Below are positions 3,420 through 47,855 of a stretch of DNA of 64,000 nucleotides, piece after piece. The notes below the pieces were generated by a model, which was not told where the DNA came from, ran no database searches, and saw nothing but the letters and a program-made list of their open reading frames with translations. The DNA lies in contig JBDTRB010000001.1 of the NCBI GenBank assembly GCA_039931865.1, positions 200-64,199 of the forward strand, given 5' to 3'. Position 1 is the first letter of the stretch, and each line of letters begins with the position of its first letter. A program made the position numbers and the translations under genes. The DNA is from Acidobacteriota bacterium (GTDB lineage: Bacteria; Acidobacteriota; Thermoanaerobaculia; UBA5066; Gp7-AA6).

Positions 3420-3565
3420 CGGGAATCGGGAGCCGAGCGACCAGCGGGAGCGAGACGGCCGCGGTACTCCGCGGTCAACTCGCCTTGCCTGATCGGGAAT
3501 CGGGAAACCCGGGGTTAAGAATTTCCTCGCCCTTCGATTCCCGATTCCCGATTACCGATTCCCGG
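3420..3565. repeat. Interspersed repeat element copy A: (CGGGAAT)2 - 58-bp GC-rich hairpin core - (CGGGAAT)2 - about 30-bp spacer - (GATTCCC)4
   Basis: Core is GGGAGCCGAGCGACCAGCGGGAGCGAGACGGCCGCGGTACTCCGCGGTCAACTCGCC, containing the CCGCGG-TACT-CCGCGG hairpin. Near-identical cores recur at 25072-25246 (two tandem copies), 25572-25661 (reverse orientation) and 43117-43230. Heptamer arrays at the two ends are in inverted orientation, TIR-like. Lies between fabG and the acpP promoter. Confidence 0.7.
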
Positions 3566-25071: not shown

Positions 25072-25246
25072 CCGAATCGGGAGCCGAGCGAACAGCGGGA
25101 GCGACGGTACTCGGTACTCCCCGGTCAACTTGCCTTGCGGGCCTGGATCCGTAATCGGGAATCGGGAGCCGAGCGACCCAGCGGGAGCGAGACGGCCGCG
25201 GTACTCCGCGGTCAACTTGCCTCGCGGGCCTGAATCGGGAATCGGC
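25072..25246. repeat. Interspersed repeat element, copies B1+B2 (two tandem cores, forward orientation)
   Basis: B1 is degenerate (cgaatcgggagccgagcgaacagcgggagcgacggtactcggtactccccggtcaacttgcc). B2 is near-canonical (gggaatcgggagccgagcgacccagcgggagcgagacggccgcggtactccgcggtcaacttgcc) and is followed by tgaatcgggaatcgg. Begins 7 bp after the OMP stop. Confidence 0.7.
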
Positions 25247-25251
25247 GAAAA

Positions 25252-25500
25252 CTAGTCCGACAGCACGGCCTTCTGCACGTCGAACACGAGGACGCCCTCC
25301 TGCTCTCCGCTTGTGATCAGGCCCGCGCCCGTCTCGCGACAAAACGCGTCTACGTCGGCGGCAGCCGCAGGGTCCGTCGCGAGAAGACGGGCCCGTGCGC
25401 CCGGAGGACAGCACCTCAACGCCGCAGCGAGCCGCAGGACAGGAATCGGGCAGTAAAGGCCCCGGGCATCCACCTCGACGACTGTTTCAAGCTTTTCCAC
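25252..25500 (-). CDS. TusA-like sulfurtransferase (CPxP motif)
   Basis: About 82 aa from GTG: (M)EKLETVVEVDARGLYCPIPVLRLAAALRCCPPGARARLLATDPAAAADVDAFCRETGAGLITSGEQEGVLVFDVQKA. The LDxRGLxCPxP motif is diagnostic of the TusA/SirA family. The track ORF (143 aa) runs on into the repeat. Confidence 0.6.
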   Translation of the reverse strand: MEKLETVVEVDARGLYCPIPVLRLAAALRCCPPGARARLLATDPAAAADVDAFCRETGAGLITSGEQEGVLVFDVQKAVLSD

Positions 25501-25571
25501 GACCCCATCGTCTCGCGATCCGGACCATTCAGCGAATTGTTTTCGTCCCTGACACGCCCCGTTGCCCTCCT

Positions 25572-25661
25572 CGATTCCCGATTCCCGATTCCCGATTCCC
25601 GGAGGCGAGTTGACCGCGGAGTACCGCGGCCGTCTCGCTCCCGGGGGGTCGCTCGGCTCTC
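25572..25661. repeat. Interspersed repeat element, copy C (reverse orientation): (GATTCCC)4 + core
   Basis: cgattcccgattcccgattcccgattcccggaggcgagttgaccgcggagtaccgcggccgtctcgctcccggggggtcgctcggctctc is the reverse complement of the copy A/B/D core plus heptamers. Together with B2 it brackets the tusA-like gene in inverted orientation. Confidence 0.7.
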
Positions 25662-37144: not shown

Positions 37145-37306
37145 TCAGCTCCCCGAGGCGAGCTTCGGCGGCAGCTCTTCCGAGTCCTCTACGGGGAATC
37201 CCGCCGCGAGCCACGCGTCCAGCCCCCCGGCGAGCGGCCGCACGCGAGTGAATCCCCTCTCCATCAGCGCGCGGGCCACACGGGCCGCCGAGGCCTCATT
37301 GGGTCA
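37145..37306 (-). other. In-frame TGA (37304-37306) followed by 52 in-frame codons that complete the rhodanese fold (candidate selenocysteine codon, or nonsense/sequencing artefact)
   Basis: The continuation reads PNEASAARVARALMERGFTRVRPLAGGLDAWLAAGFPVEDSEELPPKLASGS then TGA. Against a canonical rhodanese (IVLYC-RSGRRS-ALAAQALRELGF...LEGGMLAWEEAGLPV) it aligns without gaps. The TGA falls at the catalytic-Cys position. Confidence 0.6.
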
Positions 37307-38173
37307 CGTGCAGTAGAGAACGATCTCCCGGTCCGCGGGAAGTGTCGAGGCCTTCGCCTCGATCTCCCCGTACTGGAGCACCCGGGCCCCGGGGATCCGC
37401 CGGGGGTCGGCCATCCGCGCGCCCTGCGTGCGCACGTCCAGAACGACGGGGGCGCGATCGCCGGCGAGGAGAGGCCGCAGCTCCTCGACCGAGATGCGCG
37501 CCATGCGCAGGACCCGATAGAAGCGGCGCCTCTGCCACCACTTCAGCAGCATGAAGAGGACAAGCGCAGTCGCCAGAAGGGCGAACGCGCCCGTTCCGAT
37601 GCTGGTCAGGAACGCGAGAGCCCGATCGACGGCGCGGTGGAACAGTCGTCCGAGGAGGACGGCGCCGCCCGCCCAGAGGAGCGACCCGCCCGCGTCGTAA
37701 ACGAGAAACGCGGCGGGACGCCGTCCGATCGCGCCCGCGAGCGGCGGGGCGACGGTGGAAAACCCGGGGATGAACTTCGCGACGAGCAGGGACGGCATTC
37801 CCCAACGCTCGAACGCGCTCGACGTCTGGCGCACGCACGAATCGGGCGAGAGGGAGACCCGGCACAGCGTCTTCAGAACTCCGAGCCCGAGGCGGGCGCC
37901 GAGCGCGTACCAGATCGAGTCCGCGATCAGGCACGCGAGGAGCGCGACGAAGAGGACGCTCGTCACGCGTATGTCGTGCTCGACCGTCAGGGCGCCGGCG
38001 ACGATCAAAGTCGGGACTGCCGGAATGGGCAGCCCGATCTGCTCGAGGAGGACGTTCACGAAGACGAGAGGCAGCCCGTACCGCAGGACCGTTTCGACCA
38101 GGGGGTGCACGAGCAAATCGTATGACGAACCCGAGATTGGAGCCGAGCCGGTTGAGCGCCGAGCGTTCCGCAT
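37304..38173 (-). CDS. DedA-family membrane protein fused to a C-terminal rhodanese domain; reading frame interrupted by an in-frame TGA at 37304-37306
   Basis: From ATG 38173 (MRNARRSTGSAPISGSSYDLLVHPLVETVLRYGLPLVFVNVLLEQIGLPIPAVP..., DedA/SNARE-associated core) to ...ISVEELRPLLAGDRAPVVLDVRTQGAR...ADREIVLYCT followed by TGA. The N-terminal ~200 aa of the 492-aa track ORF are rejected as extension. Confidence 0.75.
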   Translation of the reverse strand: MRNARRSTGSAPISGSSYDLLVHPLVETVLRYGLPLVFVNVLLEQIGLPIPAVPTLIVAGALTVEHDIRVTSVLFVALLACLIADSIWYALGARLGLGVLKTLCRVSLSPDSCVRQTSSAFERWGMPSLLVAKFIPGFSTVAPPLAGAIGRRPAAFLVYDAGGSLLWAGGAVLLGRLFHRAVDRALAFLTSIGTGAFALLATALVLFMLLKWWQRRRFYRVLRMARISVEELRPLLAGDRAPVVLDVRTQGARMADPRRIPGARVLQYGEIEAKASTLPADREIVLYCT

Positions 38174-38436
38174 TGATCGGGCGGGGTGAGGCGGGCTCCG
38201 GCCCGCGCGCGGCCCGAACGGCGCCCGCCAGGTGGGGAGGCCGCCGGGCCGCCGGGCCGCGCAACGTGGTGGGCGCCCATTTGTCTCGGCACTTCCGGAC
38301 ACTCGACGCTGAACGCTGAAACCCTCAACCGGGCGGGGTGTACGTTCCGTCATCCGAATGCCCTCCGCCGCCCGCACCGCGAATAGAGCCCCCTCTCCGG
38401 CTAACCATCGGCCGCAAGCCCCGTCTAACTGATCGG

Positions 38437-38997
38437 ATGGAAGGGATCGACCGAGCGGCCGTCCTGCGGGCGAAGGCCGGCGACCGGGAGGCCTTCCGGG
38501 AGATCGTCGAATCGCACAGCCGGCACGTTTTCGGGCTGGCGTTTCGGATGATGGGCAACGAAGAAGACGCGGAGGACGTGGTGCAGGAGACATTCCTGAA
38601 GGCATACCGGGGGCTGGCGCGGTTCGAGGGAAGCTCCGAGGTTTCGACCTGGCTCCATCGGATAGCCGCCAACTGCGCGGTCGACGTCCTCCGCCGCCGC
38701 AAGGGCGGGCTCTCCGAATCCGCGGGCTCCGACGACACGGATCTGCTGCCGGACGCCCGATCTGGCCCGGAAGCCGCGGCACTGGGATCGGAGATCGACC
38801 GGCGCCTCCAGGCCTCGCTCGGCCGGCTGTCCGCGATGGAGCGCGCCGCGTTCACGCTGCGGCATTTCGAGGGGCGGTCGATCGGGGAGATCGCCGGCGT
38901 TCTCGGCGTTCGCGCCGGGGCCGCGAAGAACTGCGTGTTCCGCGCGGTCGCGAAGCTGCGAGAAGACCTGGGCCCCGTTCGGACAGCCGCGCGATGA
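38437..38997 (+). CDS. ECF-type RNA polymerase sigma factor (sigma-70 family, regions 2 and 4)
   Basis: 186 aa from MEGIDRAAVLRAKAGDREAFREIVESHSRHVFGLAFRMMGNEEDAEDVVQETFLKAYRGL... ...RSIGEIAGVLGVRAGAAKNCVFRAVAKLRE. Confidence 0.85.
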   Translation: MEGIDRAAVLRAKAGDREAFREIVESHSRHVFGLAFRMMGNEEDAEDVVQETFLKAYRGLARFEGSSEVSTWLHRIAANCAVDVLRRRKGGLSESAGSDDTDLLPDARSGPEAAALGSEIDRRLQASLGRLSAMERAAFTLRHFEGRSIGEIAGVLGVRAGAAKNCVFRAVAKLREDLGPVRTAAR

Positions 38998-39779
38998 AGC
39001 ACTCGACGGACCAGGATCTGCTGACCTTCCACTGGGACGCGGACCGCACCACGGGCGCGCACGTCGCCGGCTGCGCCTCGTGCGCCGCGCGGCTTTCGGA
39101 ACTCCGCGCGGTGCTGCGCGCCGCCGAGGAAGCTGCTGTCCCCGAGCGCGGGGAAGGGTACGGCCGGGACGTCTGGGCGCGCTTGGCGCCCTCGCTCCCC
39201 GACACCGCTCCCCGCGCGCGACTGTGGGACTTCGGGTTCCGGCGCCTCGCGGCGGCCCCCGCGGTGGCAGCGCTCGTTCTCGTGCTCGTGCTTGTGCTCG
39301 TGGCCGCCGGGTTCCTGGCAGGGCGGCTCGGCACGCCGCGCCCGACCGCGGCGGCGGAGCTGGCCGAGCTGGCCGAGCTGCGGCAACGGGTTCTCTTCGC
39401 CGAGCTCTCGGAGCATCTGGCGCGATCGGAAGCAGTGCTCCTGGAGCTCGCGAACGCGCCGCCGGGAGCCGTGGACGTCTCCGCGGAGCAGGCGCGACTG
39501 ACCGAGCTCCTGCCGGCAAACCGCCTCTACCGCCAGGCCTCGCGCCGGGCAGGCCAGCCCGCGATCACGGGGGTCTTGGACGAGCTCGAGCGTGTTCTTC
39601 TCGACGTCGAGCACGGGCCTTCTCAGCTGACCGGGGCAGAGCGCGACGCGCTCGCCCGACGCATCGAAAACGACGGGGTGCTCTTCCGCCTCCGCGTCCT
39701 CTCGTCGCGCATTCGCGCGGGCGGAAAGACGCCGCCCTCCCCCGCATCCGATTCCCTCCCCGAAAGGAAACGCGCATGA
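38994..39779 (+). CDS. Anti-sigma factor (zinc-binding HxxxCxxC, single TM)
   Basis: 261 aa, ATGA overlap with the sigma stop. N-terminal H-x3-C-x2-C (HVAGCASCAARL) anti-sigma motif; one TM helix (AAPAVAALVLVLVLVLVAAGFLA). Confidence 0.7.
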   Translation: MKHSTDQDLLTFHWDADRTTGAHVAGCASCAARLSELRAVLRAAEEAAVPERGEGYGRDVWARLAPSLPDTAPRARLWDFGFRRLAAAPAVAALVLVLVLVLVAAGFLAGRLGTPRPTAAAELAELAELRQRVLFAELSEHLARSEAVLLELANAPPGAVDVSAEQARLTELLPANRLYRQASRRAGQPAITGVLDELERVLLDVEHGPSQLTGAERDALARRIENDGVLFRLRVLSSRIRAGGKTPPSPASDSLPERKRA

Positions 39780-41014
39780 ATCCACGGCTCGTTGCTCTTC
39801 TGTTTCTGGTTTCGGCGTGCGCCGCCCCCCTGGCCCCCGCGCTTTCACTCGACGCTCTGTTCGCAATCGACGCCCGCGAACCGGAAGAACGCACGGCGCG
39901 CGTATCCGAGAGTTACGACCGGGGGACTCGCGCGTTGGACGACGGAGACTGGGAAGAGGCGATCAAGGCGTTTCGAGAGGTCGCCGAGATGCACGGCGCC
40001 CGCGCGGACGGCGCGACGTACTGGATCGCCTACGGGCTGAACAAGCAGGGGCGCCCGGATGCGGCGCTGGAGATTCTGCGCGGCTTTGCGTCGGCATACC
40101 CGAAGAGCTCGTGGCGCAAGGAAGCGCGAGCCCTGGAGCTCGAAATACAGCCCGGCTCCGGCCGTGCCGTGCTGCGCGAGGGCGGCGACGACGAGGACCT
40201 GAAGCTGATGGCGATCAACAGTCTCATGAATACGGATCCGCAGCGCGCGCTCCCCCTTCTCGAAAAAGTACTGAACGGGCCCGCCTCTCCGAAGCTGAAG
40301 GAGCGGGCGCTCTTCGTCCTCGCGCAGAGCTCCTCAGCCCGCGGGCGGGAGATCCTGGCCGCGACCGCGCGCGGGAAGTCCGGGCCGGATCTGCAGGAAA
40401 AGGCGATCCACTATCTCGGAGTCTTCGGAGGGAAGGACAACGCGCAGCTGCTGTCCGAAATCTACGACTCCGCCACCTCGAACGAGGTCAAGGAGCGGGT
40501 CCTGCACGCCTTCATGGTTTCAGGGAACAAGGAGCGCGTCCTCGGCGCGGCGCGCAACGAGAAGAGCCCCGACCTGCGGGGCGCGGCCGTCCACCAGCTC
40601 GGCGTGATGGGCGCGCGCTCGGAGCTCTGGCAGATGTACCGCAGCGAGCAGGCGGAGAGCGTCAAGGACTCGATCCTTCACGCGATGTTCATCGCCGGGG
40701 ACGTCGACCATGTTCTGGAGCTCGCCCGGACGGAGAGCGCGCCCGCGCTCCGGCGCGCCGCGATTCATCGCCTGGCGCTGATGGACCACGCGCATGCCGG
40801 GCCCGCCCTGCTGTCGATCTATCGTGGAGACCGGGACGCCGACGTCCGCAAGGCCGTCCTCCAGGGACTTTTTCTGCAGAACGACGCGCACGCGCTGGTC
40901 GAGATCGCGCGCTCGGAAAAAGACCCGCGGCTGAAGAGCGAAGCCGTGTCGAAGCTGTCGCTGATGCGCAACAAGGAAGCCACCGACTACATGCTCGAAA
41001 TCCTGAATCGCTGA
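39776..41014 (+). CDS. Secreted HEAT-repeat (PBS-lyase-like) protein
   Basis: 412 aa from MNPRLVALLFLVSACAAPLAPA (signal/lipobox), ATGA overlap with the anti-sigma stop. Repeated ...A(L/I)xxLGxxGxxxAxxxLxxxxxDxxxxVRxxA... units (e.g. DLRGAAVHQLGVMG, APALRRAAIHRLALMD, DADVRKAVLQGLF). Confidence 0.7.
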   Translation: MNPRLVALLFLVSACAAPLAPALSLDALFAIDAREPEERTARVSESYDRGTRALDDGDWEEAIKAFREVAEMHGARADGATYWIAYGLNKQGRPDAALEILRGFASAYPKSSWRKEARALELEIQPGSGRAVLREGGDDEDLKLMAINSLMNTDPQRALPLLEKVLNGPASPKLKERALFVLAQSSSARGREILAATARGKSGPDLQEKAIHYLGVFGGKDNAQLLSEIYDSATSNEVKERVLHAFMVSGNKERVLGAARNEKSPDLRGAAVHQLGVMGARSELWQMYRSEQAESVKDSILHAMFIAGDVDHVLELARTESAPALRRAAIHRLALMDHAHAGPALLSIYRGDRDADVRKAVLQGLFLQNDAHALVEIARSEKDPRLKSEAVSKLSLMRNKEATDYMLEILNR

Positions 41015-41037
41015 CCGAAATGAAAAGGGAGGACACG

Positions 41038-42009
41038 ATGCTCCGAGGAACCGCCATCGCGCTGATCGCGCTCGCCGCCGCCGCAACGGCCGCTACGGCC
41101 GCCACGGCCGCCGCCGGCACAGGGCACTGGTCTCAGCAGGGGTACAACATGAACGTCTCGACGGCGAACGACGAGGTCCGTTCGTGCAGCGACATCACGG
41201 TGCGCTGGAACGACCGCGATGCGGCGCGCGCGGAGGAGCGGTTCACCGCGCCCGCCGGGCGCGACGGCCTGACGACCTCGCTTCCGCGAAACGCCGGGGC
41301 GTGGTTCCGAAGCGCGGCGCGGAACGACTGGAGCGTCCTCGCCTGCAAGGCCGCGCGGTCGCCGGACCTCCTCCCACAGATCTCGGCAAGTGTCGGCCGG
41401 AGCGGAGAGCTCCAGGCGCAGGGGCCCGCCGGTGACGACTGGACCGTGTTCTTCGTCGTCGAGGGGCCCGCGTCGGGCAGTCTGAAGGCGGACTCGGCGA
41501 ATGGACCGCTCCACTTCCAGGGATTCTCCGGAAAGATCACCGCGAGTGTTCAGAACGGACCCGTCTCCTTCCGGGACTGCTCCGCGTCGATTGAGGCGCG
41601 CGCGCAAAACGGACCGATCTCCCTGGTCGGGACGACCGGGGACGTGGATGCGCGGGCCGACAACGGTCCGATTTCCGTGTCCGGCGATTCCGGCAACCTC
41701 CGCCTGAAGACGTCGAACGGACCGATTTCCGTCCGCCTTTCGGGCTCTTCCTGGAGGGACGGCAAGCTCGAAGGTCACGCGGTCAACGGCCCTGTGACGC
41801 TGCACATCCCGGACGGCTACCGCTCGGCGACGCTCGTCGAGAGCAATGGACATTCCCCTCTCCACTGCCGCGCCTCGGCGTGCGACTCCGCGCGGAAATC
41901 CTGGGACGACGATTCCCGGCGGATCGAGTTCGGTTCGGGAACCCCCGTCGTGACGCTCTCAACCGTCAACGGCCCCGTCTCGATCGACTCGCAGATGAGG
42001 GCCGACTGA
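41038..42009 (+). CDS. DUF4097-family putative adhesin / beta-helix repeat protein
   Basis: 323 aa from MLRGTAIALIALAAAA (signal) with a strong RBS AAGGGAGG 6 nt upstream. C-terminal half has 6 or more repeats of the NGP(I/V)S unit (ANGPLHF, QNGPVSF, QNGPISL, DNGPISV, SNGPISV, VNGPVTL, VNGPVSI), typical of DUF4097. Confidence 0.7.
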   Translation: MLRGTAIALIALAAAATAATAATAAAGTGHWSQQGYNMNVSTANDEVRSCSDITVRWNDRDAARAEERFTAPAGRDGLTTSLPRNAGAWFRSAARNDWSVLACKAARSPDLLPQISASVGRSGELQAQGPAGDDWTVFFVVEGPASGSLKADSANGPLHFQGFSGKITASVQNGPVSFRDCSASIEARAQNGPISLVGTTGDVDARADNGPISVSGDSGNLRLKTSNGPISVRLSGSSWRDGKLEGHAVNGPVTLHIPDGYRSATLVESNGHSPLHCRASACDSARKSWDDDSRRIEFGSGTPVVTLSTVNGPVSIDSQMRAD

Positions 42010-43116
42010 TGCTCCGCCGACTCGCGGTGGCGATGCTCTGTGCCGGCGCCGCCGTCTCGCTCGCCGCGCAGACGCCACCCGCCGGCCTGATCAACGCGCA
42101 CGCCGAATCGCGGGACGCTTCAATGGGTCTCGACCGGGCGTTTCGCGCGGCCGCCGCTTCCGCTGCCCCGATCTGGGTCGGCTATGCCGTGAGTTCCCCG
42201 GAGGGTCACCGGGTCTGCTGCGGAGGATCGTGGGACGGCGGCGGGTGTTCCGGGCGGTGCTCTCTCGAGGAGGACTCGAGCTCCAGGAGGTTCGAGACAT
42301 CGACGAAGGGCGAGCTCGAGTCCGGCTCCCGCACTCTGATCTTCTACCGGCTCGAAAAGGGCCGCCCGACCCGCGTACGCCTTTTTCCCGACGCCTGCTC
42401 GATCGACGGAGGTGGAAGGCCCGTCGTGTGGTTGACCGGTGTCAAACCTTCCGAGAGCGTGGCGCTTCTCTCGGCCATGGTCGCCGAGGGTTCCCCGGCG
42501 GACGGCCGGGACTCGGACGACGGCGAAGCCCCGCGGCCCGGACGCGAGGCCCTGACGGCGATTGCCCTCCATGCCGACCCGGCGGCCGATGCCGCTCTCG
42601 AGCGGTTCGCGCTTCCTCCGTCCGGGGAGTCCATCCGCAAGAAGGCCATTTTCTGGCTCGGCAATTCGCGGGGCCGCCGAGGATACGACGTGCTGAGAAG
42701 GCTCGCCGTCGAGGAGTCGAGCGGCGACATCCGGAAGCACCTGACGCTTGCGCTCTCGCAGAGCCCGGTTCCGGAAGCTCTCGGGACCCTCTTCCAGATG
42801 GCGAAGCGCGACGCGAGCCCCGCCGTCCGGGGACAGGCGCTCTTCTGGCTCGCGCAGAAGGCGGGCCACCGCGCGGCGGAGGCGATCAACGACGCGATCC
42901 GCGACGACCCCGAAACCGAGGTCAAGAAGAAAGCGGTTTTCGCGCTCACCCGGCTCCCATCCGAAGAATCGACCACGCAGCTGATCCACGTCGCGCGGAC
43001 CAACCGCAACCCGGTGGTGCGAAAGCAGGCCCTGTTCTGGCTGGGGCAATCGAGGGACCCTCGAGCGCTCGGATATATCGAAGAGGTGCTGACGAAGGAG
43101 GCGGGGACCGGACGCG
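42009..43116 (+). CDS. Secreted HEAT-repeat protein 2; 3' end undefined (no in-frame stop before a repeat element)
   Basis: From MLRRLAVAMLCAGAAVSLAAQ (signal); start overlaps the DUF4097 stop (TGATG). HEAT/PBS-like repeats (AIFWLGNSRGRRGYDVL, AVRGQALFWLAQKAGHRAAEAI, VVRKQALFWLGQSRDPRAL). The frame stays open through repeat copy D and on to 44147, which is biologically implausible. Confidence 0.55.
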
Positions 43117-43396
43117 GGAGTCGGGAATCGGGAGCCGAGCGACCCCCGGGAGCGAGACGGCCGCGGTACCCCGCGGTCAACTCGCCCTGCGGGTCTGGAT
43201 CGGGAATCGCGAATCGGGAATCGCTAATCGGAAAGCGAAGGGCAGGACAGCGACGCTCTTCGTTCCCTGATTCGTGGACGGATGGCAAAACGGCGCCTCG
43301 TCGGCGTGGAGTCACGCGGCAAGGCTCCCGGAGTCGTTCGATTCCCCATTCCCGATTCCCGATTCCCGGCTCCCGGCTCCCGATTCCCGGCCCCGG
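43117..43396. repeat. Interspersed repeat element, copy D: heptamers + core + (GGGAATC-like)4 + 107-bp spacer + (GATTCCC)n
   Basis: ggagtcgggaatcgggagccgagcgacccccgggagcgagacggccgcggtaccccgcggtcaactcgcc...ggatcgggaatcgcgaatcgggaatcgctaatcgg...[107 bp]...tcgattccccattcccgattcccgattcccggctcccggctcccgattcccgg. Ends 15 bp before the kdsD start. Confidence 0.7.
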
Positions 43397-43410
43397 TAAT
43401 ATGACCCCCA

Positions 43411-44367
43411 GTGATCCTCGAAGCAGCGCGCCGGGTCCTCCAGATCGAGGCGGACACCGTCCGGGAACAGATCGGCAACCTGGGACCGGCGTTCGAGCGC
43501 GCGGCGGAAGCGATCGGGCGGTCGAACGGACGCCTCTGCGTGACGGGGCTCGGCAAGTCCGGCCTCGTCGGACAGAAGATCGCCGCCACTCTCGCCTCGA
43601 CCGGGACCCCCGCGTATTTCCTGCACGCGGCCGAGGCGAGCCACGGCGATCTCGGCATGCTGGTCGCGGGCGACCTCGTGCTGGCGCTCTCGTACTCCGG
43701 CGAGACTCCGGAGGTGGTGCGGCTCCTCGAGTTCGCGCGCGCTCGGAAGCTGACCACGATCGCGATGACGGGGACGGAGGGGTCTTCGGTGGCTCGATCG
43801 GCGGACATCGCGCTCGCGATCACCGTGTCGCGCGAGGCTTGCCCGTTGAACCTCGCCCCGACTGCCTCGACGACCGCCATGCTCGCCGTCGGGGACGCCC
43901 TCGCGATGGCGCTCTCCGAGATGCGAGGGTTCCGCGAAGAGGATTTCGCCGCGCTCCACCCCGGCGGCGATCTCGGGCGCCGCTTTCTGAAGATCAAGGA
44001 CCTGATGCGGACGGGCGAGCGGGTCCCCCGGGTCACGGAGGGGACGCCGATGGCCGAGGCGATCCACGAGATGTCCCGGAAGATGATGGGCATCACCGCG
44101 GTCGTCGACGCCGGGGATCGCCTCCTCGGCGTGATCTCCGACGGTGACCTGCGCCGCCTCCTCGAAAGAGATGCGGGCCTCCTCTCGCGCACGGCCGGCG
44201 CGTGTCTTCATCCAGGCGCCCGTACGGTGGGCGCGGAGGAGTTCGCGTCCACGGCGCTCGCGACGATGGAGGTTTCCCGCATTACTTCTCTCTTCGTCGT
44301 CGAGGACGGGCGCCTCGCCGGGGCCGTGCACCTGCACGACCTTCTGTCCGCGGGAATCACCGCGTGA
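43411..44367 (+). CDS. kdsD: Arabinose-5-phosphate isomerase (SIS + tandem CBS domains)
   Basis: 318 aa, GTG start, ...GRLCVTGLGKSGLVGQKIAATLASTGTPAYFLHAAEASHGDLGM... C-terminal CBS pair. Confidence 0.9.
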   Translation: MILEAARRVLQIEADTVREQIGNLGPAFERAAEAIGRSNGRLCVTGLGKSGLVGQKIAATLASTGTPAYFLHAAEASHGDLGMLVAGDLVLALSYSGETPEVVRLLEFARARKLTTIAMTGTEGSSVARSADIALAITVSREACPLNLAPTASTTAMLAVGDALAMALSEMRGFREEDFAALHPGGDLGRRFLKIKDLMRTGERVPRVTEGTPMAEAIHEMSRKMMGITAVVDAGDRLLGVISDGDLRRLLERDAGLLSRTAGACLHPGARTVGAEEFASTALATMEVSRITSLFVVEDGRLAGAVHLHDLLSAGITA

Positions 44368-44891
44368 GCGCTCGATCTCGCCGGGCGGGGGCGGGGGCGG
44401 ACGTTCGGATCCGCGCGCTCTTTTTCGACGTGGACGGCGTGCTCACCGACGGCCGCATCTATCTCGCGGACGACGGAAACGACTTCAAGGTCTTCGACAC
44501 GAAGGACGGGCACGGTATCAAGCTGGCCATCGGCGCGGGGATGCGCGTCGCCTGGATCTCCGGCCGCACCTCCCGGGCGACCGCACGCCGGGCTCGGGAG
44601 CTCGGTGTCCGCGACTGCCGCCAGGGCGTCGCACACGATGGGAAGCTCGCCGTTTACGGCGACCTCTGCAGGAAGTTTGGAGTCACGCCGGCGGAGACGG
44701 CGGCGATGGGCGATGACGAGCCCGACATTCCACTGTTGGAAGCGGCGGCGTTCTCCGCCTGCCCCGCCGACGCGGTTCCCGCCGCGCGGAAAGCTGCCGG
44801 CGTGATCCTCAAAAACCGGGGCGGCCGGGGCGCCGTCCGGGAGTTCATCGAGCTCGTGCTGGCGCGCAACGAGCGGCTGGCGAAGACCTGA
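44364..44891 (+). CDS. kdsC: Kdo-8-phosphate phosphatase (HAD family)
   Basis: About 175 aa from GTG overlapping the kdsD stop (GTGA): ...IRALFFDVDGVLTDGRIYL...GHGIKLA...GDDEPDIPLLEAAAFSACPADA... KdsC HAD motifs. The track ORF from 44202 is an in-frame extension inside kdsD. Confidence 0.8.
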   Translation: MSARSRRAGAGADVRIRALFFDVDGVLTDGRIYLADDGNDFKVFDTKDGHGIKLAIGAGMRVAWISGRTSRATARRARELGVRDCRQGVAHDGKLAVYGDLCRKFGVTPAETAAMGDDEPDIPLLEAAAFSACPADAVPAARKAAGVILKNRGGRGAVREFIELVLARNERLAKT

Positions 44892-44916
44892 AACCCGATT
44901 CCCTCCGGAGTCGGGC

Positions 44917-45693
44917 TCAGCTCGACGAAGTATCGCGCCGCTTGAAAATCCACGCCACACCGACTCCCAGGAGATAGAGCGCGATCATCGGAAGGGCGAA
45001 CACGCACTGCGTCGCGATGTCGGGGGTGGGCGTGATGATCGCGGCGATGATGAAGATGACCAGGACGGCGTACTTGAATTTTTTCATCAGCCAGGCGGGC
45101 GTGACGATTCCGATCCGTGCCAGGAAGAAAATGAAGATCGGCGTCTCGAAACAGAGGCCGAGGCCGAAAATGAGCTTCGACGCCGTCGAGAGGTACTCGT
45201 TGATCGTAATGACGGCGTTGAAGTGGCTGCCGACGTTTCCGACTAAGAACCGCACCACCCCGGGGAAGGCGACGTAGTACGCAAAAGCGCACCCGGCCAC
45301 GAAGAACAGGACCCCGAAGATCACGAACGGCCAGATGTATCCGCGCTCGCGGCGGTAGAGCGCGGGCGCGATGAACAGCCACACCTGCCAGAGGATGACG
45401 GGGGACGCCAGGATCACTCCCGCGTACATGGCGACGCGGAAGTACATGAGGAAGGGCTCCGTCATCGTCGTGTAGGAAAGGTTCTGACCGGGGGGAAGGG
45501 TCCGGCGAAGCGGAGCGGCCAGGAAGTCAAAGATCTCCGGAGCCCAGTTCCACGAGACCAGAAACGTCACGAAAACGGCGATGAGGCAGACGATGAGGCG
45601 CTTCCGGAACTCTTCGAGGTGATCGAAGAACCCCATACGGGGAAGCTCTTCCTCCCCCTCGTCGCGGAGCCGGCCCGGCGCGTCTTCGTTCAA
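44917..45693 (-). CDS. tatC: Twin-arginine translocase subunit TatC
   Basis: 258 aa, ...MGFFDHLEEFRKRLIVCLIAVFVTFLVSW... six-TM TatC pattern. True start may be the internal MGFFDHLEE (45636). Confidence 0.85.
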   Translation of the reverse strand: MNEDAPGRLRDEGEEELPRMGFFDHLEEFRKRLIVCLIAVFVTFLVSWNWAPEIFDFLAAPLRRTLPPGQNLSYTTMTEPFLMYFRVAMYAGVILASPVILWQVWLFIAPALYRRERGYIWPFVIFGVLFFVAGCAFAYYVAFPGVVRFLVGNVGSHFNAVITINEYLSTASKLIFGLGLCFETPIFIFFLARIGIVTPAWLMKKFKYAVLVIFIIAAIITPTPDIATQCVFALPMIALYLLGVGVAWIFKRRDTSSS

Positions 45694-45760
45694 GCGCGCC
45701 GCGCCGGCCGAAGGAAGTCATGCCCCGGGGAGACCCCCGCGGCGGCCGTCGCGCTCGGGC

Positions 45761-46102
45761 TCAAGCGGGGTGAATCGGACGCGGGTCGGCGGTCGAGGGA
45801 GCGGGATCGCCCAGGGCGACCGAGGCCGGGTCCGCGGGCATGGCGGGAACGGTCTCGGCGGCGGGCGGAGAGATCAGGCTGTTTTGAACGGACGCGACGT
45901 GATCCTTGACGGCGGCGACCTCCGCCTTGCTCTGCTCGATTTCCGTCTCGATCGTTTTCTTCAGCTCGTCGGACGCTTTCTTGAACTCGGCCAGCCCCTT
46001 GCCGAGGGATTTGCCGATCTCCGGCAGCTTCTTGGGACCGAACACGAGGAGGGCCACGACGAAGATCAAAACCAACTCGGGCATACCGATGGAGCCGAAC
46101 AT
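45761..46102 (-). CDS. tatA: Twin-arginine translocase subunit TatA/TatB
   Basis: Start at the internal [43 protein letters not shown] (canonical TatA N-terminus). The track ORF has 12 extra N-terminal residues. Confidence 0.8.
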
Positions 46103-46220
46103 GTTTCCCCCTGCGCAGGCGATTCTAACCCCGTGCACGGCGAAGGCCGATTCCCTGCCGATTTCGAAGTCGGCGTGTCAGAATGTGGATTCTCCCAGGC
46201 TCTGGGGGCAGGAGGTTCGA

Positions 46221-47855
46221 GTGAGCCAGCCACGGTCTCGATTACTGGTCTCGATCGCGCTTCTCGCGGCGGCCACCCTTCTCGGTGGGGCGCTCGGGAG
46301 CAAGCTCTTCGCCTCTCCGGAGCGGGAAGTGCCCCCGCTCGATGAGTACGCGGACATCCTGACGACCCTCGGCGAGTGGTCCCCGGAAGCCGTCGCCCCT
46401 GAGAAGTTCGTCTATGCCTCGATCCACGGAATGCTCGCTCGTCTCGACCCGCACACCGCGTTTCTCGAACCCGACGAATACGCGGCGATGCGTGAGAAGC
46501 AGCAGGGCTCGTTCTTCGGTCTCGGCATCCAGATCCAGAAGCGGATGGGCAAGATCACCGTGATCGCCCCGATGGAAGGGACCCCCGCCTACAAAATGGG
46601 GGTCCGCGCCGGAGACGTGATCACTCACATCGAGAGCGAGGAGATCAAGGAAGACGCCTCGACGGACGACGTGGTGAAGAAGCTTCGCGGGCCCAAGGGA
46701 ACCGCCGTCCACATCACGATTCACCGGACCGGCCTGGACGAGCCCCTTCAGATGACGATCACGCGCGCCGAGATCCCCACTCTCTCCGTGCCGTATGCCT
46801 TCATGCTGAATGCGGACACGGGCTACATACTCCTCCGCGATTTCACGCACACTTCCAGTCGCGAGCTGATTGCCGCACTCGGCAAGCTCGAGAAGCTCGG
46901 CATGAAGAGGCTCGTCCTCGACCTCCGCGGAAACCCGGGGGGCGTGCTGGATCAGGCCGTCGACGTTTCAGACGTCTTCCTCCCCAAGGGCTCCAAGATC
47001 GTCTACACCCGCGGTCGGACTCCCTCGTCGGCCCAGGATTTCTACGCCCCCGGGGACGGTCCCCATTTCGACCGGCCGCTCGTCGTGCTGATCAACCGCG
47101 GCTCCGCGTCGGCCTCCGAGATCGTCGCCGGCGCAATCCAGGACCATGACCGCGGGCTCCTGGTAGGCCAGCGAAGCTGGGGCAAGGGCCTGGTGCAGAG
47201 CGTCTATACGCTGCCCTACGGCGCCGGCCTGGCGCTGACGACCGCGCGCTACTACACGCCCTCCGGCCGCTGGATCCAGAGGGATTACAGCGATCTGCTC
47301 GCCTACGTCAATCCCGAGGACCCGGACGCCGTCGCACCCGCGACCGGAGACGCCGTCGCGGAAGCTCCGCGAACGGCCGGTCAGACGTTCTACACCGACG
47401 CGGGCCGCACCGTGTACGCCGCCGGCGGGATCACCCCCGACGTCGCGATCAAGAGCGGGTTTGCCGAATCGAAGCTCCTTTCGCAGTTTCTCGCCCGCAA
47501 CCTTTTCTTCAATTTCGCGGTCGACTACCTCTCGAAGCACCCCGAGGTGAAGCTGAGCTTCGAAGTCACACCGGAGCTGCGCCAGCAATTCTTCAAGTTC
47601 GCGGAAGCCAGCAAGTTCTCGAGCGTCGAAGAGCTCACGCGCCAGTGGGAGGCTGAACCGAAACGTTCCATCGTGGACCTCGCCGTGAAGGTCGAGATGG
47701 TGAACGCGAAGTTCGGGCTCGAGGCCGGCCGCAAGGCGCAGTCCGAGGGTGACACGCAGCTCCAGAAGGGGCTCGCGATGTTCGATGAGGCGGCGAGAAT
47801 TGCCGCGCTCCCGAAGAAGCCGGCACCCGCGCGGGCGGCGAAACAGGGCAGCTAA
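46221..47855 (+). CDS. Carboxyl-terminal processing protease (S41 family, PDZ domain)
   Basis: About 544 aa from GTG (VSQPRSRLLVSIALLAAATLLGG, signal) with a GGAGG RBS. PDZ region (GLGIQIQKR...VIAPMEGTPAYKMGVRAGDVI) and the S41 catalytic region (...LINRGSASASEIVAGA...). The track ORF from 45906 overlaps tatA antisense. Confidence 0.85.
   Translation: MSQPRSRLLVSIALLAAATLLGGALGSKLFASPEREVPPLDEYADILTTLGEWSPEAVAPEKFVYASIHGMLARLDPHTAFLEPDEYAAMREKQQGSFFGLGIQIQKRMGKITVIAPMEGTPAYKMGVRAGDVITHIESEEIKEDASTDDVVKKLRGPKGTAVHITIHRTGLDEPLQMTITRAEIPTLSVPYAFMLNADTGYILLRDFTHTSSRELIAALGKLEKLGMKRLVLDLRGNPGGVLDQAVDVSDVFLPKGSKIVYTRGRTPSSAQDFYAPGDGPHFDRPLVVLINRGSASASEIVAGAIQDHDRGLLVGQRSWGKGLVQSVYTLPYGAGLALTTARYYTPSGRWIQRDYSDLLAYVNPEDPDAVAPATGDAVAEAPRTAGQTFYTDAGRTVYAAGGITPDVAIKSGFAESKLLSQFLARNLFFNFAVDYLSKHPEVKLSFEVTPELRQQFFKFAEASKFSSVEELTRQWEAEPKRSIVDLAVKVEMVNAKFGLEAGRKAQSEGDTQLQKGLAMFDEAARIAALPKKPAPARAAKQGS

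Follow-up and report, generated by a model that had tools for sequence, protein, structure and literature searches.

A conserved, tightly coupled operon predicted to encode an ECF stress-sigma factor system with exported HEAT-repeat proteins in Acidobacteriota

The combination of an autoregulated extracytoplasmic function (ECF) sigma factor, an anti-sigma factor and accessory proteins is a well-known plan, and the operon described here appears to be a further version of it. It lies in a stretch of 64,000 nucleotides from Acidobacteriota bacterium (Thermoanaerobaculia; assembly GCA_039931865.1, contig JBDTRB010000001.1, positions 200 to 64,199 of the forward strand), which is referred to below, at its full length, as the window. 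Five open reading frames (ORFs), all on the + strand, occupy its 38.4-43.1 kb region: g1, coding for an ECF sigma factor; g2, coding for a predicted membrane anti-sigma factor; g3 and g5, coding for exported HEAT-repeat proteins (the HEAT pair); and g4, coding for an exported DUF4097/Toastrack-like protein.

Among the closest described systems is the rpoE-rseA-rseB-rseC operon of Escherichia coli. It, too, is tightly coupled and encodes an autoregulated ECF sigma factor together with an anti-sigma factor that crosses the membrane once and with exported accessory protein(s), and its sigma-E promoter has, like the motif predicted to serve as promoter here, an AAC-containing -35 element, a TCTAA-like -10 element and a 16-nt spacer. 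The accessory proteins of the present operon are, however, HEAT-repeat proteins and not RseB, its anti-sigma factor is of the ZAS type with an unrelated extracytoplasmic domain, and its transcript appears to be leaderless; activation of the DegS type was neither looked for nor encountered. The sigma-W/RsiW system of Bacillus subtilis offers the closest match to the anti-sigma domain of g2. RsiW is also a ZAS protein that is anchored in the membrane and extends outside the cytoplasm, but the B. subtilis operon contains neither HEAT nor Toastrack genes and the extracytoplasmic domains are unrelated. A survey of PSP partners (PMC11237479) describes Toastrack proteins that are linked in operons to sigma factors. 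The g4 product resembles the Toastrack partners LiaG, YvlB and LiaX through its probable membership in DUF4097 and a weak match to the LiaX C-terminus, whereas, in contrast to the Lia/Psp Toastrack modules, it is exported on its own, with a signal peptide and without a fused PspC, LiaI-LiaF-TM or anti-sigma domain, and is optional and lineage-restricted. As for the HEAT pair, PBS-lyase-type HEAT proteins such as CpcE/CpcF and NblB are cytoplasmic and act on phycobiliproteins. These proteins and the designed alphaRep share with g5 the HEAT repeat type and the solenoid fold, but g3 and g5 differ from CpcE/CpcF and NblB in carrying signal peptides and in being linked to an ECF system, and g5 has in addition an extra N-terminal domain. 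The literature searched yielded no paper that connects ECF systems to exported HEAT-repeat partners.

The distribution of the module was studied by searching a g5 profile against one genome per species, which returned at least 588 relatives, most of them in Acidobacteriota; the best 80 loci were compared, with the gene content of each locus determined by tblastn and ORF comparison, and four loci (L081, L084, L085 and L087) were added separately. Among the 80 loci, g3 is present in 76, g2 in 68 and g1 in 62, and the missing genes are almost all explained by contigs truncated within the module. The order g1-g2-g3-g5 is constant across this set, and in 76 of the 80 loci g3 is directly followed by g5 or by g4 and g5. 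By their phylum labels, 74 loci belong to Acidobacteriota (Thermoanaerobaculia, Terriglobia, Vicinamibacteria and Bryobacterales) and six to other phyla; the sequences of these six look like the Terriglobia type, and they may be binning errors. g4 occurs inside the module only in L001-L005, L015, L027, L081, L084, L085 and L087, which make up the clade of the window; outside this clade, g5 immediately follows g3 and the flanking genes vary (e.g., in L030). For this reason the conserved unit is, judging from synteny, one of four genes (sigma, anti-sigma, HEAT, HEAT), near-universal where the contig permits the test, and g4 is a later lineage-specific insertion between the HEAT genes of the window's clade. 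The arrangement HEAT-DUF4097-HEAT, highlighted in the initial annotation of this DNA, is thus not the conserved one.

All five same-strand genes are present, and the four junctions that the initial annotation had listed stand at the coordinates that it gave. The g1-g2 and g2-g3 junctions are ATGA overlaps (38994-38997 and 39776-39779) and the g4-g5 junction is a TGATG (42007-42011), while the Shine-Dalgarno sequence AAGGGAGG precedes the ATG of g4 (41038) by 7 nt. Start/stop overlaps recur across species at g1-g2 (45/63), g2-g3 (35/71), g3-g5 (31/72) and g4-g5 (7/11), counts that are upper estimates, start-codon choice being biased to short distances. No sigma-70-type promoter was found inside the operon, and terminator-like sites inside it are not in excess over shuffled sequence.

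Table 1. Coordinates of the operon and its associated features in the window
Feature	Position	Strand	Basis
Predicted promoter motif	38401..38428	+	-35 CTAACC 38401-38406, 16-nt spacer, -10 GTCTAA 38423-38428
g1, ECF (group IV) sigma factor, 186 aa	38437..38997	+	Pfam/NCBIfam
g2, putative single-pass membrane anti-sigma factor, 261 aa	38994..39779	+	ZAS motif, family profile
g3, exported TPR + HEAT_2 protein, 412 aa	39776..41014	+	Pfam, signal sequence
g4 Shine-Dalgarno sequence	41023..41030	+	Direct reading
g4, exported DUF4097/Toastrack-like protein, predicted beta-helix, 323 aa	41038..42009	+	Homologues, NGP repeats
g5, exported N-domain + PBS-type HEAT protein, conserved part 363 aa	42009..43097	+	Pfam, model
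Inverted CGGGAAT heptamer array	43103..43397	.	Inverted repeats, folding

A second line of evidence comes from the promoter region. Spaced dyads were sought without bias in the 260 nt 5' of g1, and TAAC-N17-GTCT emerged in 51 of 60 loci, the remaining loci having a relaxed form of it; the motif consensus is CCTAACC-N16(17)-GTCTAA, and every lineage tested has CTAACC-N16-GTCTAA upstream of g1. Each of 57 loci has a single copy of the strict motif, and the 1.05 Mb of loci contain no other. The copy of the window ends 8 nt 5' of the ATG at 38437, and a second copy is absent from the 64-kb window, even with two mismatches allowed. When metagenome contigs were scanned for CCTAACCG-N15-GTCTAA, 120 matches were examined, 80 of which have a g1-type sigma gene immediately after them (with an ATG 7-9 nt downstream in 68 of these 80). 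The other 40 share no common downstream gene and look like chance matches, so that the motif is almost exclusive to this operon. Starting from the motif and not from g5, 19 of the 22 metagenome loci with at least 4.2 kb downstream of it contain g2, g3 and g5. These counts, taken together with those of the 80 loci, show the exported HEAT proteins to be conserved partners of the sigma/anti-sigma pair; the initial annotation had named a lack of such conservation as a ground for refuting its reading, and that ground falls away.

In the g5-derived loci, the distance from the -10 element to the first ATG is 7-9 nt in 55 of 62 cases, and this ATG shares the reading frame of the sigma gene in 61 of 62. 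Because this distance and the frame are conserved, the start of g1 can be fixed at 38437; an alternative start at GTG 38338 was discarded, since the conserved promoter falls within that extension. The short spacing excludes a ribosome-binding site, from which a leaderless or near-leaderless sigma transcript is inferred. A promoter of the form GAAAC...CGTT had been proposed at 38300-38345, but its AAC-to-CGT spacing is about 20 nt and it is not conserved, the sole conserved dyad of ECF type being that of 38401-38428. One Thermoanaerobaculia locus (L052) has two tandem promoter-like motifs, at about 117 and 42 nt before the sigma gene, each followed after 8 nt by an ATG, and the -10 element of the second copy reads GTCTGA.

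These data bear on the objection that the genes do not form a unit at all, but are same-strand neighbours whose overlaps arose by chance in a genome of 68-70% G+C. G+C content in the window ranges from 62.5 to 73.4% per 2-kb window (mostly 65-71%), and a high G+C content does produce long spurious ORFs and frequent NTGA tetramers. Gene order is nevertheless kept across classes of Acidobacteriota while the flanks change, the same order was recovered independently from the promoter motif, and each product has hundreds to thousands of homologues; synteny thus refutes chance association, which is hardly credible any longer, and the cluster is, as far as sequence can tell, a real, tightly coupled and conserved ECF stress-sigma operon.

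The identity of the sigma factor is well defined at the superfamily level. Sigma70_r2 (73.5 bits) and Sigma70_r4_2 (42.4 bits) are the sole Pfam domains in the 186 residues of g1, and among the NCBIfam models it passes only that of the ECF superfamily, TIGR02937 (99.3 bits, cut-off 42.9). None of the NCBIfam equivalogs passes its cut-off, including the two SigW models, which score 115.7 and 102.3 bits against cut-offs of 209 and 243. The nearest sigma factors of solved structure are 8z6g/6in7, Mycobacterium tuberculosis SigE, B. subtilis SigW and E. coli sigma-E (E 1e-18 to 1e-25), and the assignment to the ECF (group IV) factors agrees with the cognate anti-sigma factor encoded directly downstream in 62-68 of the 80 loci. 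The main texts on ECF classification (among them PMC7826278) make no mention of a HEAT neighbourhood, and the classification itself (Staron 2009; Casas-Pastor 2021) may already list this group with its neighbourhood.

In g2, a class I anti-sigma domain at the N-terminus is followed by a single transmembrane helix and, on the extracytoplasmic side, by a conserved helical domain of about 130-150 residues (roughly residues 115-250 in the protein of the window). Its N-terminal domain contains the ZAS motif H-x3-C-x2-C as HVAGCASC (H23, C27 and C30), plus H3, and these four residues hardly vary among 27 orthologues. The family profile matches the anti-sigma domain of RsiW (5wuq_C, E=1.1e-5) and, weakly, ChrR, DdvA and 3hug_B (E 0.02-0.04), the last of which we take to be RslA. 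The ECF sigma/anti-sigma pair recognized in the initial annotation is supported. The ZAS-like character that had been attributed to g2 holds for the motif, and in sequence comparisons the picture is mixed, the family profile matching RsiW while the Pfam family zf-HC2 does not match the protein of the window; in the orthologues, zf-HC2 stays below its 22.2-bit cut-off, with 15 of 27 at E<0.1 (best E=2e-4). Binding of zinc and of the sigma factor by g2 is predicted from the ZAS residues and the profile. The extracytoplasmic domain carries conserved motifs of its own, RERILLVAVGDHLERSQMV, NRLYRQTA and VLDxLERVLLEIAHSP, and a search of Pfam and the PDB found no relative of it.

The near invariance of H3, H23, C27 and C30, and the match of the g2 profile to ZAS anti-sigma domains, could also be read as the signature of a cytoplasmic redox switch, in which the zinc site would release the sigma factor upon thiol oxidation, as in RsrA, and the exported proteins would be passengers or outputs. 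The best match of g2 is, however, RsiW and not RsrA, and its conserved extracytoplasmic domain argues for an external input. In the membrane-anchored ZAS proteins RsiW and RslA, the zinc site is structural and control comes from outside or is exerted by proteolysis. As g2 is itself membrane-anchored with a conserved outer domain, a redox switch of this type is considered quite unlikely.

g3, g4 and g5 all have signal-peptide-like N-termini, in the window and in the orthologues; a lipobox-like LVSAC in g3 is restricted to the protein of the window and is not conserved. In g3, the signal peptide is followed by a TPR region (approximately residues 43-117) and then by HEAT_2 repeats; Pfam gives 70.6 bits for HEAT_2, with TPR_16, TPR_6 and TPR_19 above or near their cut-offs. 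In g5, HEAT_2 scores 87.9 bits and HEAT_PBS 33.8 bits, and its AlphaFold (AF2) model has a pLDDT of 85. In Foldseek searches, the solenoid of this model matches alphaRep and the CpcE/F structure 5n3u with probability 1.0, and the full-length search returned HEAT proteins only. The HEAT repeats that the initial annotation had read in both proteins, as of PBS-lyase type, are borne out above cut-off by HEAT_2 in g3 and by HEAT_2 and HEAT_PBS in g5, and by the alpha-solenoid of the g5 model. The HEAT regions of g3 and g5 are distant paralogues (25% identity, E=6e-8) and the two proteins end in similar C-terminal motifs, -YMLEILNR in g3 and -YIEEVLTK in g5. Neither these proteins nor g4 match RseB/MucB in Pfam or NCBIfam, so that the likeness to RseB is one of operon position. 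In g3 orthologues outside the window's clade (e.g., L030 5517-6887, and in Terriglobia and Bryobacterales), a long low-complexity linker, either charged (DREQEKRDRE-type) or proline-rich (PPLPP-type), follows the signal peptide. This linker explains the apparent gap of 250-500 bp between g2 and g3 in tblastn comparisons.

The N-terminal domain of g5 (approximately residues 26-145), beta-rich with two helices, is family-specific. Cys84 and Cys130 are invariant in it and Cys70 and Cys71 nearly so. Modelled alone it reaches a pLDDT of 82, and a comparison with PDB folds gave no meaningful match (best E=0.09, TM<0.2). Clustering at 50% yields 713 cluster representatives with this domain; in the 150 listed, the domain starts within the first ~115 residues (mostly at 20-60), the proteins are no longer than about 430 residues and no other domain architecture appears. 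Those of the listed g5 homologues that have a database name are called just 'HEAT repeat domain-containing protein', 'HEAT repeat protein' or 'hypothetical protein'.

The preferred interpretation, to which we give an even chance, is that of a self-contained, self-regulated ECF envelope-signalling operon typical of Acidobacteriota, in which the HEAT pair acts on the anti-sigma factor. The sigma factor g1 would transcribe its own operon from CTAACC-N16-GTCTAA, giving a leaderless mRNA. In the resting state, the N-terminal anti-sigma domain of g2 would keep the sigma factor at the membrane, and an envelope signal perceived outside the cytoplasmic membrane would free it, probably because g2 is proteolysed in the way that RsiW and RseA are. 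The ensuing burst of expression would provide sigma factor, anti-sigma factor and HEAT pair in stoichiometric amounts, with the HEAT pair as the main product of the regulon. By analogy with the E. coli system, the HEAT pair would most likely form a periplasmic complex that docks on the extracytoplasmic domain of g2 and sets or resets the sensitivity of the system, a role like that of RseB performed by unrelated proteins, and g4 would be an added envelope component, lineage-specific.

Some points weigh against this scheme. The evidence for both the promoter and the leaderless start is the conservation of the sequence, and the proposed link between the HEAT pair and the anti-sigma factor is drawn from operon logic and from the analogy with rpoE-rseABC. 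A site-1 or site-2 protease gene is absent from the module. The scans covered the window, the loci and the metagenome contigs, and regulon members with weaker motifs would escape them. The window's own copy of g5, too, may be impaired, if the loss of its stop codon described below is real. In favour of the scheme are two loci of Bryobacteraceae (L076 5788-5841 and L078 4792-4845), where CTAACC-N16-GTCCAA, a Shine-Dalgarno sequence and an ATG precede a second HEAT pair (g3'-g5') that is accompanied by neither sigma nor anti-sigma genes. This arrangement suggests that a sigma factor of this type targets the HEAT pair, the g3'-g5' genes being likely a trans-regulated paralogue of it, but L076 and L078 are closely related and the motif that they share counts as one observation.

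The same observations can be accommodated by another model, in which g2 senses the signal alone, by its extracytoplasmic domain, and the HEAT pair (with g4, where present) is pure output, made of periplasmic scaffolds, chaperones or binding proteins for protection or remodelling of the envelope. The HEAT genes lie downstream of the sigma factor's own promoter, there is no further copy of the motif nearby or in the window, the sigma-less HEAT pair of L076 and L078, with its near-consensus motif upstream, resembles a regulon target, and HEAT solenoids are generic binding scaffolds. On the other hand, this model leaves unexplained why the HEAT pair is almost never parted from its regulator, and the overlap of g2 with g3 in 35 of 71 cases, together with the strict co-inheritance of the HEAT genes with the anti-sigma factor across classes, fits a physical partnership. 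Pure output is considered a real possibility, albeit on the unlikely side, and the HEAT pair may also be output and anti-sigma control both at once. The more ambitious form of the proposal that the HEAT pair acts on g2 is that the pair and the extracytoplasmic domain of g2 make up a new periplasmic sensor complex, independent of RseB, ancestral and near-universal in Acidobacteriota, that gates the proteolysis of the anti-sigma factor; one HEAT partner would contribute TPR repeats and the other its Cys-bearing N-terminal domain, with the conserved cysteines as periplasmic redox or metal input. In this complete form the proposal is rather doubtful.

The family membership of g4 had been given in the initial annotation as DUF4097, and it stands only by an indirect route. 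The protein of the window has no match to PF13349 (DUF4097) at E<=5, and just weak matches to DUF7330 (E=0.0017) and to the C-terminus of LiaX (E=1.9e-5). Its homologue P0129, 64% identical to it, does pass PF13349 (28.3 bits against 22.9), and several other homologues are annotated or domain-labelled as DUF4097, so that the assignment of g4 to DUF4097/Toastrack holds by transitive homology. Approximately seven 18-residue 'NGP(I/V)S' repeats, with N, G and P invariant, and four invariant cysteines are apparent in the g4 alignment, and g4 may fold as a single-stranded beta-helix. The g4 profile has no match among PDB sequences, and PspC, LiaI-LiaF-TM and PspA domains are absent from g4 and from its neighbouring genes. 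Solitary paralogues of g4 with about 40% identity are found in L082 (6001-6912) and L086 (6001-6993), adjoining genes of the futalosine (menaquinone) pathway, MqnA-like and radical SAM, in a conserved position. Neither an ECF module nor the promoter motif is found near these two solitary genes; a TAACA-N12-GTCTAT in L082 was rejected as a promoter, as it has the wrong spacing and no position-weight-matrix match.

The 3' end of the operon reads differently in the window. All g5 homologues end in YIEEVLTK and a stop codon at about 363 residues; in the window, the AAG of this last lysine is followed by GAG (43098-43100), where the 93%-identical relative L084 has AAG TAG. The ancestral TAG reads GAG here, and no stop lies at 43116, where the gene had been placed to end in the initial annotation. 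The frame stays open to 44147, adding 349 codons that run through a repeat element and cross, in another frame, the kpsF-like gene (43411-44367). The T-to-G change is either a real mutation or an assembly or sequencing error. Compared with L084, the window has ~240 extra bases directly after the lost stop, formed by inverted arrays of CGGGAAT, and the complete array folds as a hairpin of ~290 nt (-185 kcal/mol, z=-7.6); L084 has at this site only a short right arm with a 71-nt spacer. Arrays of CGGGAAT are also found at ~3420-3564 and ~25149-25601, with 21 matches against 0.3 expected by chance. Because it is largely absent from such a close relative, the element looks like a mobile or expanding REP/MITE-like repeat, and its copy at this site may serve as the 3' hairpin of the operon.

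The surroundings of the operon are kept within the window's clade, with a dedA-like gene upstream and kpsF, kdsC, tatCA and an S41 protease gene downstream. In the window, the former is a divergent dedA/VTT-like gene (37304-38200, - strand), apparently fused to a rhodanese-like C-terminus, and the latter (43411-47855) code for a kpsF-like arabinose-5-phosphate isomerase, a kdsC-like phosphatase, TatC, TatA and an S41 C-terminal protease. L087 shows matching flanks on both sides, and L081 and L084 show them in part.

Few bacteria are as abundant in soil as Acidobacteriota and, to our knowledge, almost nothing is known of how they sense their surroundings. The best 120 matches to a Terriglobia query include no orthologue from a cultured strain, all of them being metagenome-assembled genomes or metagenomes. 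The module is uncharacterised and, though it should come as no great surprise to specialists in ECF signalling, it is phylum-wide: at least 588 species have a g5 relative, and there are thousands of metagenome protein clusters, those listed being named HEAT repeat or hypothetical proteins. It is compact, its dedicated promoter is recognisable and could be used as a reporter, and it contains two domains without known relatives, the extracytoplasmic domain of g2 and the N-terminal domain of g5. The putative leaderless start of an autoregulated sigma gene makes a clear, testable prediction on gene expression in Acidobacteriota, and a minimal regulon and feedback of the HEAT pair on the anti-sigma factor are further predictions that can be tested. 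If it is true that the HEAT pair controls the anti-sigma factor, these proteins would represent a new class of accessory regulators in ECF signalling; if they are only its output, they would be a conserved exported machinery in a major phylum.

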